From the sequence record DRR723986_8739: DNA of 20,000 nt; one strand, written 5' to 3'. This document shows, in pieces, positions 6,988-12,286 of this stretch; position 1 is the first letter of the stretch, and each line of letters starts with the position of its first letter. Both the position numbers and the translations under genes were made by a program. The notes below the pieces were generated by a model. The model saw only the letters and a program-made list of their open reading frames with translations, searched no databases and was not told the DNA's origin.

Positions 6988-7965
6988 TTATTTTCTCAGT
7001 CCCAGTTCGCGAAGTCTTTCTTCTAGGAATTCTCCTGCGGTAGCATCTTCAAACTGTTTTGGGTGGTCTGAATCGACACAGCTTTCCAGACAAGTAAGAT
7101 CCATTTCAGATCTTGGGTGCATAAAGAAAGGAATGGAATACCTACTTGTGTTCATTTTTTCCCGAGGTGGGTTGACCACGCGGTGGATGGTAGATTTCAA
7201 TTTTTTATTGGTTAGTCTTTCCAGCATATCACCTACATTCACTACGAGTTGGTCAGGCAGGGCAGTAATTGGTATCCATTTTCCATCCATACGCTTTACT
7301 TGAAGTCCATCAGCACTTGCTCCCATTAGCAAAGTAATCAAGTTAATATCGCCATGTTCGGCAGCTCTTACGGCATCGGCAGGTACCTCATCGGGGTTTT
7401 CAATTGGGAAATAATGGATTTGCCTCAAAATTGAATTTCCATAAGCAACCTTGTCTTCAAAATAATTTTCATTCAACTCCAAAGAAAGCGCAATTGCCTG
7501 AAGCATGGATTTTCCAGCGCTTTCAAGCGTACGGTATGCTTCATTTGCATCATTTTGAAATTCTGGAAGCTCAGTAGGCCAGATGTTTGGAGGATATTCA
7601 GATTTGATAGGGTCAGTGTCGGGAATTCGGCTGAGTTCTTGCCCTACATGATAAAATTCCTTTAAATCTCCAGTATTTCTGCCTTTGGCATGCTCTTTTC
7701 CCTTCCCAGTATAGCCTCGTTGAAATCCGATTTCCGGTTTCTCATATTTGGCTTTAACATTGTCTGGAAGTTTGAAGAAATTTTTGATCGATCCGTAAAG
7801 TCTGTCTTGAAGATCCTGGGATAAGCCATGGTTCTTAATAGCTACAAAACCAATGTTTTGGTATGCTTCCCCAAGCTTTTGTACAAATGCAGCTTTTTGA
7901 GCAGGCGTACCCGCCGTAAAATCAGCTAAATCCAAACTTGGGATCTCATCAAATAGGATGTCCAT
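6988..7965 (-). CDS. 2-oxoglutarate/Fe(II)-dependent dioxygenase, isopenicillin N synthase-like (DIOX_N + 2OG-FeII_Oxy)
   Basis: N-terminal IPSLDL...GFVAIKNHGL, metal triad HGD...IHRVV, NVGDMLERLTN, and the 2OG-binding RYSIPFF motif. Confidence 0.9.
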   Translation of the reverse strand: MDILFDEIPSLDLADFTAGTPAQKAAFVQKLGEAYQNIGFVAIKNHGLSQDLQDRLYGSIKNFFKLPDNVKAKYEKPEIGFQRGYTGKGKEHAKGRNTGDLKEFYHVGQELSRIPDTDPIKSEYPPNIWPTELPEFQNDANEAYRTLESAGKSMLQAIALSLELNENYFEDKVAYGNSILRQIHYFPIENPDEVPADAVRAAEHGDINLITLLMGASADGLQVKRMDGKWIPITALPDQLVVNVGDMLERLTNKKLKSTIHRVVNPPREKMNTSRYSIPFFMHPRSEMDLTCLESCVDSDHPKQFEDATAGEFLEERLRELGLRK

Positions 7966-8040: not shown

Positions 8041-8808
8041 ATGAATAAAATCCTGACTTTACTCTCATTCATTTGTCTTTTTTCAGCTTGTAGTTCCGAG
8101 AAAGAGAGGGTTAATGAGGAAGTAGTTGAATTACCGAATAGTCAAGGCACAGAAGATGTAGCTACTCCTCAGGTAAAATTCTTTCAATATGAGGGGCAAG
8201 CTGCCTACCCTGATGCAATTCTTGAATTATATACACCTTTAGGAAATCAAATTTTTAAGCCAGGAAAAGTTCCGTTCGAGTTTAATGTCAAAAACTTTCC
8301 TTTCGATCTAAACGAAACTAAGGAATTTAAGCTTTTCAATATTTTAAATGGAGGCGATCCTGCTGGGTTTTATTCTCCGATTTTTCAAAGAGATCTTACA
8401 GAAGGAAGTTACCGGGTCGTCGCTTATTTGGTAGATGAGGAAGGACTTGCTCTGAAAAATTTCGGAAATTATGTTGATAGAGATTTTCAAGTTGGAGACT
8501 CTAGACCTTTTCCATATTCAGCGGAGCCTTATTTGGCTTTGAATTATCCAAGGTCAGATCAGGTTTATGACTCTGGTAGCGAAGTAGTTATTGATTTTTT
8601 GGTGATCGGTGGAGATATGAAACTTGATGGACTTAAAGTCTCTATTCAGCTAAATGATCTAAGCTATGAAATTGATCACATGGCTCCTGTCCGAGTAGAA
8701 AATCTTCCTGTTGGAAATTACCAGGTGAAAGTGAGATTGCTACGATCCGATGGAAAAGAGCTTGACGGACCATTTTCAAGTGTGAGTAAAGACATCATTG
8801 TTCGCTAA
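8041..8808 (+). CDS. Hypothetical lipoprotein with two tandem beta-rich (Ig-like) repeats
   Basis: Signal peptide II with lipobox LFSAC, an acidic linker, and an internal duplication (LTEGSYRVVAYLVDEEG vs LPVGNYQVKVRLLRSDG). Confidence 0.75.
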   Translation: MNKILTLLSFICLFSACSSEKERVNEEVVELPNSQGTEDVATPQVKFFQYEGQAAYPDAILELYTPLGNQIFKPGKVPFEFNVKNFPFDLNETKEFKLFNILNGGDPAGFYSPIFQRDLTEGSYRVVAYLVDEEGLALKNFGNYVDRDFQVGDSRPFPYSAEPYLALNYPRSDQVYDSGSEVVIDFLVIGGDMKLDGLKVSIQLNDLSYEIDHMAPVRVENLPVGNYQVKVRLLRSDGKELDGPFSSVSKDIIVR

Positions 8809-10140: not shown

Positions 10141-10171
10141 AGCGTGAAGATTACTTCTTCACGCTTTTTTT
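10141..10171 (+). terminator. Intrinsic terminator of serS
   Basis: 10-bp stem AGCGTGAAGA / TCTTCACGCT with a 5-nt loop, followed by a T run, between the convergent serS and DUF3037 genes. Confidence 0.85.
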
Positions 10172-10199: not shown

Positions 10200-10583
10200 T
10201 TACCCTACATTTTCCTCAAAAAGGCATTCCAAAGTTTTCTCCAAGTCCTCGGCAGTTCCAGAATGGGGCCGTGAAGTTTGGATAATGGAGCTTCTTACAG
10301 CAGTTAGCCATCTAAACCTAGAGGCTAAATCCATGGATGCAATATTACCCCCTGCTTCTGAACCAGTGCATATTTTTTCAAATGAGGCCAAATTAAGTGC
10401 AATCATTTCAACATCAGCATGAGGATCCAGCATCAATAATTTTTGAGTGTTCAAATGTATCTTACAGGCAAGGAAATTTCTTTTCCAATGGCAGATCACT
10501 ACACCAACATTGATGAATTCCTCCCTTTCCACCCGTGGCACTACACGGATGATCGCGTATTCATATAAGTGCTGTTCTTGCAT
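10200..10583 (-). CDS. DUF3037-family protein (partner of the HipA-like kinase)
   Basis: Family-typical YEYAIIRVVPRVEREEFINVGV N-terminus and RFRWLTAVRSSIIQTSRPHSG. Start overlaps the kinase 3' end by 23 nt. Confidence 0.85.
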   Translation of the reverse strand: MQEQHLYEYAIIRVVPRVEREEFINVGVVICHWKRNFLACKIHLNTQKLLMLDPHADVEMIALNLASFEKICTGSEAGGNIASMDLASRFRWLTAVRSSIIQTSRPHSGTAEDLEKTLECLFEENVG

Positions 10584-11355
10584 CTTGAGCTTCTTTTATG
10601 AATTGATCAGAATAGGAAAGGCGAAGATTCAAAAAGTCTTGGTAAACCTTTCTCACTTCATCTGCATGCTCAGAATCGCCACCCGCTAGTAGCCATTCTT
10701 CTGGAATAGTATTTACAATTGCGCTGATTTTCTCTGGGGTCAAAACCTTTTTAAAAGTTGCATTTACAGTTTCTAGTTCTGAAGCCGCTGGAAGCAACAC
10801 ATGATTTTTAATTATAGGAAAAGGGCTTTCCGCATTTTTCTTCCAATTCACCCATGCATGTTGAAATAAGAAAGAAGCCCCATGATCGATTAACCAAAGC
10901 TCTCGATTCCAAATTAGCATGTTTGTGTTTCTAAAAGTCCGATCCACATTCGTGATGAACATGTCCAGCCAGACTATTTGCGAAGCTAGAAGAGGATCTG
11001 TATTCATGGCCACGGGATCGTAGTTGATCGCTCCAGATAAGAAATGCAGGGCTAGGTTAAGGCCTTGGCTACCTTTGAGCAGGTCTTGAATTTCTTCGTC
11101 TCCCTCAGATCTACCAAATGCTGGATCAAGGTTGGCGAAGACTAATTCCGGGACTTTCAAACTTAAAGCTCTGGCAATTTCCCCGCCCAGTAGTTCGGCG
11201 ATGAGTGCTTTTTCTCGCTGACCAGCTCCTCGGAATTTGAGTACATATTTAAACCCATCATCTGCATCAGCAAGAGCAGGCAGTGATCCTCCTTCTCGTA
11301 GGGGGAGAATATACCGGGTTACATTTACGTTGCGTAAACTTAATTTTTGATCCAT
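10561..11355 (-). CDS. HipA-like (PI3/4-kinase-fold) protein kinase, HipA_2 type
   Basis: Gly-rich loop LREGGSLP, catalytic Lys YVLKF, alphaC Glu LIAELL, catalytic loop NVDRTFRNTNML and Mg-binding LIDHG. Start placed at ATG 11355 (MDQKLSLR, 264 aa), because the ORF-track TTG at 11388 falls inside a promoter box. Confidence 0.85.
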   Translation of the reverse strand: MDQKLSLRNVNVTRYILPLREGGSLPALADADDGFKYVLKFRGAGQREKALIAELLGGEIARALSLKVPELVFANLDPAFGRSEGDEEIQDLLKGSQGLNLALHFLSGAINYDPVAMNTDPLLASQIVWLDMFITNVDRTFRNTNMLIWNRELWLIDHGASFLFQHAWVNWKKNAESPFPIIKNHVLLPAASELETVNATFKKVLTPEKISAIVNTIPEEWLLAGGDSEHADEVRKVYQDFLNLRLSYSDQFIKEAQDARTALI

Positions 11356-11385
11356 TTGATACTTATAATGCAAGCCTTGATTGTC

Positions 11386-11393
11386 CAAAGTTA
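11386..11393 (-). promoter_or_regulatory. Bacteroidota -7 box (TAACTTTG) for the kinase-DUF3037 pair
   Basis: Plus-strand CAAAGTTA reads TAACTTTG on the minus strand. It lies 30 nt upstream of ATG 11355, in the gap after the bestrophin stop. No clear -33 TTTG. Confidence 0.6.
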
Positions 11394-11404
11394 AAGAATC
11401 TGAT

Positions 11405-12286
11405 TTAGATCAGTTCTTCTACATGCTTTTGGATGTTTGAAGATAATTTCCCCATAGGTAGGTCATTGGCATCGGTGCCAAAAGGCTCTTCGATTTCTTC
11501 GGCTATCAATTCTAAACTGGCTAATACGTAAAATATAAAAGTCACGATCGGGGCAGCATAATATCCTAGTGAAAATACATATCCAAGAGGCAAAGTGACT
11601 ACATAAGCCAAAATGAATTTCTTAATAAAAGAGCTGTAAGAGTAGGGAATTGGTGTGTTTTTGATTCGTTCACATGCACCGCATATATCTGTGAATGACA
11701 TTAACTCCTGGTTCAAAACGATCAATTGATCGCCTGTAATTATTTTGGCTTTATACAGATCATTCACCTTAGCAAACATCAATTTAGCGACTTGGTTGGG
11801 AACATGTTTTTCTGGATCGATCTCGGGTTTTATATCCTCATCTTCCTTGTCATCCAGCATATAAAGTGTCACTTTGGATTGCAAATGTTCCTTTAGGGCG
11901 AAAGCATAAATGGGAATTGTTCTCCTGAAAAATTTTCTGGATTCTTCGTCAGAATTATCAAGCATTCCGGCCAGCTTTAGGGCTAGATTTCGGCTATTGT
12001 TTACCAATTGCCCCCATAGTTTCCTGCCTTCCCACCATCTGTCATATGCAGTATTCGTTCGGAAGACCAATAACATGGAAATCACAAAGCTCAGTAAACT
12101 GTGCATGATTGGGATATTTTTCACCCAACTGTTTTCGCTAATCTTTAAATAGTCAATTTCCAGCCAAGCCATTCCTATGGAATAAGCAAAAATCAGGAGC
12201 ATAAAAGGGCCTAACTTGACTAAGGTGTCAGACTTTTGAATAAAAAATAAAACTTTAAACCATTCCTTTGGATTATATCCTTTCAT
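11405..12286 (-). CDS. Bacterial bestrophin-family ion channel (YneE/VCCN-like)
   Basis: Motifs LLVFRTNTAYDRWWEGRKLWG, CERIKNTPIPYSY and EEIEEPFGTDANDLP, with hydrophobic helices. Confidence 0.9.
   Translation of the reverse strand: MKGYNPKEWFKVLFFIQKSDTLVKLGPFMLLIFAYSIGMAWLEIDYLKISENSWVKNIPIMHSLLSFVISMLLVFRTNTAYDRWWEGRKLWGQLVNNSRNLALKLAGMLDNSDEESRKFFRRTIPIYAFALKEHLQSKVTLYMLDDKEDEDIKPEIDPEKHVPNQVAKLMFAKVNDLYKAKIITGDQLIVLNQELMSFTDICGACERIKNTPIPYSYSSFIKKFILAYVVTLPLGYVFSLGYYAAPIVTFIFYVLASLELIAEEIEEPFGTDANDLPMGKLSSNIQKHVEELI

Follow-up and report, generated by a model that had tools for sequence, protein, structure and literature searches.

What does a HipA-like kinase do for the cell when the gene that follows it encodes only one domain of the partner found in a known anti-phage system? 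The question is raised by a gene pair in a stretch of 20,000 nucleotides (nt) from sequence record DRR723986_8739, here called the window, where the gene of a HipA_2 kinase overlaps that of a protein made up of a DUF3037 domain. The first-pass annotation, made from the letters of the window, had taken the pair for a non-canonical toxin-antitoxin or signalling module. Judged from the protein sequences, the pair belongs to a separate short-partner branch, sister to the anti-phage system HipAD, and it behaves like a single-copy, vertically inherited core gene with housekeeping-like conservation. The reading that we prefer, and to which we give about an even chance, is that the pair is a chromosomal, vertically inherited kinase with its inhibitor, sister to HipAD, working as a non-lethal stress-response switch. 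The kinase residues, the fixed pairing, the slow branch and the housekeeping context come from the present analysis; stress induction, benefit in bile and a dispensable partner come from published data on a presumed ortholog.

The kinase, its partner and their branch

Of 70 kinases placed in a tree, 48 have a short partner (from Bacteroidota, one Streptomyces record and metagenome contigs) and fall on one side of a branch, and 20 that have a long partner, as in HipAD, fall on the other. The branch has a support of 97 in the Shimodaira-Hasegawa-like approximate likelihood ratio test, and of 100 when the columns of the private motifs are removed; the kinase trees are quick and unrooted, contain several long branches and do not set the direction of change. 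Each protein of the short form carries a motif of its own: ExDxExQ occurs in 134/134 close kinases and in 0/20 long-partner kinases, and R[FWY]xW in 143/146 short partners and in 0/13 long ones. Since one of these motifs is acidic and the other basic, they suggest a candidate interface between kinase and partner. Pairwise identity has a median of 62% for the 35 Bacteroidia short-branch kinases compared and of 21% for 11 Bacteroidota long-partner kinases, where the long forms are thinly sampled because the searches began from the short form. DUF3037 occurs in 41/301 Bacteroidota genomes, 33 times in the short form and 8 times in frames of 288-326 amino acids (aa); B. thetaiotaomicron is among the species with a DUF3037 match. 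The nearest genome has, besides the short form, a second and highly divergent pair with a long partner (proteins of 283 and 289 aa; contig of 2.6 kb; G001:C17, L185:475-2194), and the two forms therefore co-exist in one genome.

Profile comparison identifies the short partner as the N-terminal domain of HipD (DS-6B) minus the C-terminal ~150 aa, the match to the N-terminal domain of long partners having a probability of 98.8% over 125 columns, which is the whole length of the partner. In the Atlas clusters the partner matched DUF3037 clusters only, and the C-terminal half of one long partner matched only unnamed clusters below 0.9; of the clusters formed at 90% identity, at least 8000 match the short-partner profile. 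The partner model, with a predicted local distance difference test score (pLDDT) of 92, gave no fold match at Z >= 5 and no Foldseek match with E <= 0.001. Three chains of HipS or of the HipA N-terminal part appear at Z 2.6-2.7, which is within noise (we take 7vkb_B to be HipS). Against 25 Couple_hipA domains, the HipS family, the partner had no profile match (probability 0.1-0.5%), nor was there a Pfam match.

Much of what the first-pass annotation had read from the letters is borne out. The profile search that it had proposed matched both families, HipA_2 for the kinase (E 5.7e-17) and DUF3037 for the partner (E 1.9e-45, all 118 profile positions); NCBIfam had no match for the proteins of the pair, and no chain in the Protein Data Bank matched either of them by sequence. 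The catalytic elements that it had listed, GGSLP, VLK, AEL, DRTxxNxN and DHG, are all found intact, as R20-EGGSLP26, VLK40, AE54L, N136-VDRTFRNTN145 and D157HG, and K40, D138, R139, N145 and D157 are invariant in 69/69 aligned orthologs. HipA and HipT autophosphorylate at a serine of the Gly-rich loop, Ser150 in HipA, whose equivalent here is S24 (PMC10627512, as far as that source is available). The overlap of 23 nt between the 264-aa and 127-aa genes agrees with the coordinates (Table 1). A close kinase (53-99% identity) was found at 134 distinct loci, of which 116 have the same 23-nt overlap and the remaining 18 one of 11-20 nt. The view of the genes as a coupled unit is upheld by a DUF3037 partner directly 3' of the kinase in 134/134 of these loci, and by the presence of both in the same 61/84 genomes of the genus. 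In 133/134 loci the partner is 124-135 aa long, and in the other one the contig ends within it. The kinase frame would extend to 275 aa with a TTG start; ortholog lengths are mostly 260-267 aa. The closest relatives of the window kinase are in Algoriphagus records, with 98% identity in the closest genome compared, which makes the source of the window Algoriphagus-like.

Two absences noted in the same annotation also stand. No helix-turn-helix (HTH) domain was found by Pfam in the 8 window proteins scanned, in line with its remark that a HipB-like gene is lacking nearby. The kinase model (pLDDT 91) is predicted to be a HipA/CtkA kinase core without the N-terminal subdomain of HipA, and HipA chains align with it only from residue 147-148. 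In the fold search CtkA comes first (Z 14.7, root-mean-square deviation 3.9, 205 residues aligned), followed by PI4KII-alpha (Z 13.8, 4.2, 227 aligned), CotH (Z 13.0), the lipid kinase MavQ (Z 11.6) and HipA and HipT chains (Z 10.8-11.6), and the protein kinases in the list are CtkA, CotH, actin-fragmin kinase, HipA and HipT. Neither protein of the pair has a membrane-spanning stretch (maximal hydropathy 1.18 for the kinase and 0.91 for the partner).

Distribution, neighbourhood and promoter

Each of the 61 genomes just mentioned has one full-length copy of the kinase; the other 23 of the genus comprise 22 without DUF3037 and one with a weak long form only. In the family (G296 included in the tallies), of 151 genomes 41 encode the kinase at full length and 43 the short partner, one of the two extra partners being due to an assembly gap and the other being a remnant without kinase. 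In the class the kinase is present in 27/201 genomes, and in the sample of family f67, which is not shown to be Bacteroidaceae, it is present in 0/83. Three N-terminal kinase fragments stand without a partner (L305:2681-2908, L306:2764-2946 and L307:2736-2870), and at one locus (L308:2884-3272) the partner is N-terminally shortened and the kinase almost gone. An apparently broken kinase beside an intact partner in G284 was rejected, the break being a 100-N assembly gap.

The median ratio of nonsynonymous to synonymous substitution rates (dN/dS) is 0.038 for the kinase and 0.053 for the partner, compared with 0.029 for serS, 0.027 for nusB and 0.071 for coaE, in up to 12 Algoriphagus relatives whose dS is near saturation and for some pairs not computable. 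The identity of the kinase follows that of the neighbouring core genes (Spearman 0.70-0.91), and its GC content at third codon positions is like that of its neighbours. In one Algoriphagus locus (L060) kinase, partner and SerS are 98-100% identical to those of the window and CoaE and YbbR only 76-79%, a step that indicates local recombination just upstream of the pair. Two records titled Limnohabitans (L077) and Planctomycetota (L080) have the Algoriphagus gene order, and since a sample drawn around L077 is Bacteroidota, at least the Limnohabitans title looks wrong.

In the window the pair lies between serS, which is convergent to it and set off from the partner gene by a terminator-like hairpin, and bestrophin-coaE-ybbR-yajC, and the arrangement of the locus is stable within genera. 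Neighbourhoods were compared at 24 short-form loci, picked for their differing flanks, with 197/222 open reading frames (ORFs) scanned and the remainder mostly repeated families or shadows, and at 11 long-form loci with 82 ORFs. Defence genes within 5 kb occur at 1/24 short loci and at 5/11 long loci. The long loci have type I restriction-modification (R-M) genes in four cases and Mrr in one, and two others have integrase or RadC; near the 24 short loci no R-M or integrase genes were found in the 197 ORFs, and one Vsr and one Sir2 gene were seen there and left out of the defence count. The sole short-form locus with a defence system (L136:1393-5236) has an OLD/TOPRIM ATPase with a UvrD helicase, presumably Gabija-like. 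In Bacteroidota, pairs with a long partner (HipAD-type) often lie within or directly after type I R-M operons (L182:3323-12422, L183:1670-10866, L178:970-8012 and L176:6078-12275), and in L182 and L183 hsdS and hsdR flank the pair, with a gene for an OLD or KAP NTPase next to it; such placement suggests that these pairs act as guards of the R-M system. Four viral scans, in which exact peptide words were needed and enterobacterial prophages are probably over-represented, gave 0 matches for the short form and 45 loci for the HipAD kinase used as control, and 50,697 phage records gave only 5 distant matches with 25-29% identity. One Bacteroidota plasmid match with clear context lies among pyrE, argH and gltA.

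The first-pass annotation had also proposed a promoter of the pair's own, and this holds in part. The box TAACTTTG (11393-11386) lies 30 nt 5' of the kinase ATG and has the form TAnnTTTG, which we take to be the -7 consensus of Bacteroidota. A single box is weak evidence, with 0.05 expected by chance per 80 nt per strand in the window; as a class, however, such boxes occur within 80 nt 5' of 67/134 orthologs, compared with 6/134 for the antisense strand, 7.2 on average in shuffled sequences and 26/1072 coding windows. The -33 TTTG is lacking further upstream, and since no terminator-like site was found between the pair and the upstream bestrophin gene, read-through from that gene is possible. 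A look for RNA runs belonging to the window turned up no entry.

Table 1. Positions in the window of the gene pair, its sequence elements and nearby features
Feature	Position	Strand	Remark
HipA_2 (PF20613) / PDC-M66A-type kinase, short-partner branch	10561..11355	-	264 aa from ATG
DUF3037-only partner	10200..10583	-	127 aa; Pfam and PDC-M66B matches
Overlap of kinase end and partner start, 23 nt	10561..10583	-	putative translational coupling
Gly-rich loop R20-P26	11278..11298	-	S24 is invariant and, judged from Ser150 of HipA, a candidate for autophosphorylation
Branch-specific acidic segment E84-x-D86-x-E88-x-Q90...S96-x-G98-x-N100	11056..11106	-	invariant in 48/48 short-branch rows including Streptomyces
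Catalytic loop N136-N145	10921..10950	-	D138 aligns with D139 of DS-6A
Metal-binding motif D157-H-G (DFG equivalent)	10879..10887	-	D157 unchanged in every row, 48 short and 20 long
Branch-specific basic patch R89-F-R-W92-L-T-A-x-R97-S98	10290..10319	-	private to short partners
TAnnTTTG box, candidate Bacteroidota -7 promoter element	11386..11393	-	from the letters and from enrichment upstream of orthologs
Terminator-like hairpin, convergent serS and partner genes	10141..10165	+	context
Bestrophin-family channel gene	11405-12286	-	directly 5' of kinase; in some Algoriphagus loci, absent from others
2-oxoglutarate-Fe(II) oxygenase gene (DIOX_N)	6988-7965	-	beyond serS; frequent in syntenic Algoriphagus loci
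Gene for a 255-aa protein without significant Pfam match	8041-8808	+	beyond serS; frequent in syntenic Algoriphagus loci

A proposed stress-response switch and its rivals

Published genetics of Bacteroides fragilis bear on the function of the pair through a gene with the InterPro identifier IPR046748, which we take to be HipA_2. In strain P207 this gene, PTOS_001795 (783 nt, labelled 'aminotransferase class I and II'), stands directly before the DUF3037 gene PTOS_001796 (384 nt), according to the accessible tables of PMC10790697, from which all the B. fragilis data below are taken. Both lengths equal those of the pairs in P. distasonis and B. finegoldii, whose kinases share 65% and 62% identity with that of the window and have the short-branch motifs, and the two genes are presumed orthologs of the window pair by order, length and InterPro identifier. 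HipA_2-family kinases are labelled 'aminotransferase' in some annotations (PTOS_001795 and the phage hit H12) and are thereby hidden in omics tables. DUF3037 rows were absent from the supplements of two further papers (PMC13114119 and PMC8121099).

Kinase and partner genes are expressed at 42-48 and 14-17 reads per kilobase per million, and 20 min of deoxycholate induces both, with log2 changes of +1.78 (false discovery rate, FDR, 5e-55) and +1.46 (FDR 2e-15). Both are called non-essential, the partner having insertions at 6/18 TA sites in 3 strains (PMC10790697). In the second passage with deoxycholate the mean fitness of kinase mutants is -1.18 and that of partner mutants -0.12 (plain medium: -0.50 and +0.07); the corresponding values are -1.76 and -0.53 in 0.08% bile, -1.57 and -0.04 in 0.16% bile (plain: +0.12 and -0.11), and -0.49 and -0.12 in a bile salt mixture. 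Tested over the replicates, fitness departs from that in plain medium for kinase mutants (p 0.016 and 0.0013) and does not for partner mutants (p 0.30 and 0.20). A partner that can be lost and a kinase whose loss is costly in bile hint, if the orthology is right, at the reverse of a toxin-antitoxin pattern. Partner loss does not copy kinase loss, which suits an inhibitor more than an activator that the kinase could not do without, and inhibition is also the most likely role by analogy, carried over from the long forms (PMC12548924, in its available part).

The non-lethal switch would then work as follows. Membrane or detergent stress would increase transcription from the promoter of the pair, and the overlap would couple the synthesis of the two proteins. 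The DUF3037 protein would bind and damp the kinase, probably with its basic RFRW..RS patch on the acidic ExDxExQ segment, where phosphorylation of the conserved partner residues T94, S98 and S104 or of kinase residue S24 may act as a switch. Kinase set free would phosphorylate a conserved host protein, and growth would be maintained under envelope stress. A wider reading, which we hold only tentatively and at somewhat less than even chance, is that the commonest DUF3037 systems of Bacteroidota are a non-toxic branch of kinase-inhibitor signalling, serving host-target phosphorylation in envelope stress and not defence, so that HipAD would be the weaponised and this branch the domestic version. 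The branch would be conserved and extend over Bacteroidota and Streptomyces and, to go by labels in the Atlas, also Acidobacteriota, with some of it concealed under the label 'aminotransferase class I and II', and the two versions would differ by the DNA-binding-like half and the matched acidic and basic interface.

A number of points weigh against the stress switch. Presence is patchy above the genus. An intact kinase without partner was never seen and a partner remnant without kinase was seen once (L308), which is the asymmetry expected of a toxin. The locus arrangement differs between genera, the dS values behind the slow rates are near saturation, and the long forms with which the branch is compared are few. 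Both PADLOC models of PDC-M66 match the pair, and HipBST of Legionella is a conserved chromosomal kinase set and yet a true toxin-antitoxin system (PMC10653801, as far as available). The orthology of the B. fragilis genes is presumed, and B. fragilis belongs to another order; the kinase effect falls far short of the -4 that the authors set as cutoff, their text, in its available part, does not mention the gene, and kinase mutants are mildly impaired also in plain medium (-0.30 and -0.50 in the deoxycholate series; PMC10790697). The pair is followed by fadD, an extreme case of a bile-sensitivity gene, and a neighbour effect on kinase fitness is possible; against this, fadD is regulated oppositely (log2 -2.9) and insertions in the partner, which is closer to fadD, are near neutral. 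Finally, non-essential is also the call for the HipS-like gene of that library (7/27 TA sites, 1 strain), so that a call of this kind is no sharp test for an antitoxin. The HipS-like gene belongs to a HipBST-like locus, PTOS_000661-000663, in which all three genes are called non-essential (PMC10790697).

Among the alternatives, a minimal anti-phage toxin-antitoxin system of HipAD type survives best, and we consider it unlikely. In such a system the DUF3037 domain alone would be the antitoxin, a phage would free the kinase and shut down the cell, and the pair would be a stably kept chromosomal defence gene. Both proteins are homologous to DS-6A and DS-6B and match PDC-M66A and PDC-M66B, the catalytic Asp that DS-6 needs for defence is kept (PMC13092281), and in a long form from Bacteroidota deletion of DUF3037 is toxic and deletion of the kinase ends defence (PMC12548924). 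The constant company of intact kinase and partner, the patchiness above the genus and the Legionella precedent, conserved yet toxic (PMC10653801), agree with it as well. It is opposed by viable, near-neutral partner mutants and impaired kinase mutants in the presumed ortholog (PMC10790697), by a partner surface conserved at housekeeping level, by defence neighbours at one short locus of 24 and no copies in four viral scans, and by the DUF3037 rows of DefensePredictor Table S4, which among those listed are all 267-290 aa.

Far less probable is a lipid or small-molecule kinase directed at a component of the envelope, the partner being its regulatory or substrate-presenting subunit. PI4KII-alpha ties with CtkA in the fold search, MavQ is found there too, and the bile phenotype of the presumed ortholog (PMC10790697) would fit; but protein kinases stand in the same fold list, no membrane-spanning segment is found in kinase or partner, and lipid-pathway neighbours are not conserved across genera. 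A persistence system like HipBA, in which stress would free the kinase to phosphorylate an aminoacyl-tRNA synthetase, perhaps SerS, and halt growth reversibly, is similarly improbable: it has the HipA/HipT fold, the Gly-loop Ser, the stress induction of the presumed ortholog and the adjoining serS of the window on its side, but serS is present in only 20/80 wide loci, where it stands tail to tail and the arrangement is always that of the Algoriphagus type, kinase loss lowers and does not raise growth fitness (PMC10790697), and an HTH antitoxin or DNA-binding half is missing. SerS was rejected as kinase target, its adjacency being local synteny only.

Of the functions that the first-pass annotation had offered, a signalling module thus fits best. 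A toxin-antitoxin, persistence or anti-phage module is doubtful here, where the short-partner branch lies outside defence islands and phages, and where, in the presumed B. fragilis ortholog, the partner is dispensable and the kinase aids growth in bile. DUF3037 as a downstream inhibitor or adaptor keeps the support that it neutralises the kinase in related long-partner systems (PMC12548924). If the pair is a stress-response switch, a widespread Ser/Thr kinase pathway of Bacteroidota, including gut Bacteroides and Parabacteroides, has been named, and its first phenotype, bile fitness, is already public under a wrong gene name. Calls of PADLOC PDC-M66 or HipAD on the short form may then not be defence, and the two branches offer a comparison for the interconversion of phage-triggered toxin kinase and housekeeping regulator. 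If the minimal HipAD-type system is right instead, its minimal antitoxin domain has been defined, which is useful and less surprising.

Comparison with known systems

The pair has its nearest known relatives in HipAD, reportedly described by Brenes and Laub in 2025. The claim of the first-pass annotation that the couple has no established function was mistaken, the family being that of HipAD, DS-6 and PDC-M66 in anti-phage defence. DS-6, which is HipAD, is a validated anti-phage system of a HipA-like kinase and a DUF3037-DUF1829 protein, and its defence requires the catalytic residue, mutated as D139A in DS-6A; DS-6B has about 275 aa with DUF1829 at residues 163-260, the AlphaFold3 model of the complex has an interface predicted template modelling score of 0.76-0.79, and Table S4 of DefensePredictor has at least 6 rows named DUF3037 (PMC13092281, in its available part). 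The HipA and HipD genes of phage PhiR5_1 match the printed DS-6 sequences as far as compared by eye. Against these the window kinase has 29% identity (E 4e-14), with D138 aligned on D139, and the partner 26% identity to HipD residues 7-126 (E 2e-10). The kinase matches the PADLOC candidate PDC-M66A (E 7e-25) and the partner PDC-M66B (E 9e-11), the latter only at profile positions 3-128 of 281. No paper was found that separates the short form or assigns it a function, in a literature search covering few subscription papers; short forms may be included in the HipAD paper and in what PMC12548924 provides as DUF3037 tree and neighbourhood file.

More distant systems share parts of the pattern. The HipA/DUF3037 pair of Retron-Sda1 (Sphingobacterium daejeonense) is of the same two families and the same phylum. 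In E. coli its kinase is the toxin and DUF3037 the neutraliser, kinase deletion ending defence and DUF3037 deletion being toxic (PMC12548924). It appears to be a long form, since its DUF3037 protein, unlike the window partner, has a C-terminal region resembling a retron DNA-binding protein (PMC12548924), and its Gly loop, read by eye, is without the REGGSLP signature of the short branch. HipBST of E. coli O127:H6 and Legionella pneumophila likewise combines a short kinase that lacks the HipA N-terminal subdomain with a small separate partner, but its order is hipB-hipS-hipT, whereas the window has kinase then partner and no HTH gene, and between HipS and the DUF3037 partner there is no profile match and, in the fold search, a score within noise. 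HipBA has an upstream HTH antitoxin and a kinase of ~440 aa, where the window has bestrophin upstream and a kinase of 264 aa. The best structural likeness, to CtkA of Helicobacter pylori, PI4KII-alpha and CotH, comes with only 13-16% identity, and we know of no DUF3037 partner for these kinases.

HipAD and the window pair have in common the kinase-first order, the overlap, a HipA_2 kinase with catalytic Asp, the lack of HipB and a full DUF3037 domain that opens the partner. They differ in that the window partner has 127 aa and not 275 aa and no DUF1829-like half, in the private motifs of both proteins, the slow evolution and the single copy, in the core-genome context away from phages as far as the four viral scans reach, and in the presumed-ortholog data, which indicate that the partner can be lost and that the kinase is of benefit. 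The family is therefore already known, as HipAD-like at least structurally. What is new is a short-partner variant, which keeps the catalytic Asp and the directly downstream DUF3037 gene and departs from HipAD in three features: the partner architecture of ~275 aa, the long-partner branch and the location in prophages or defence islands.

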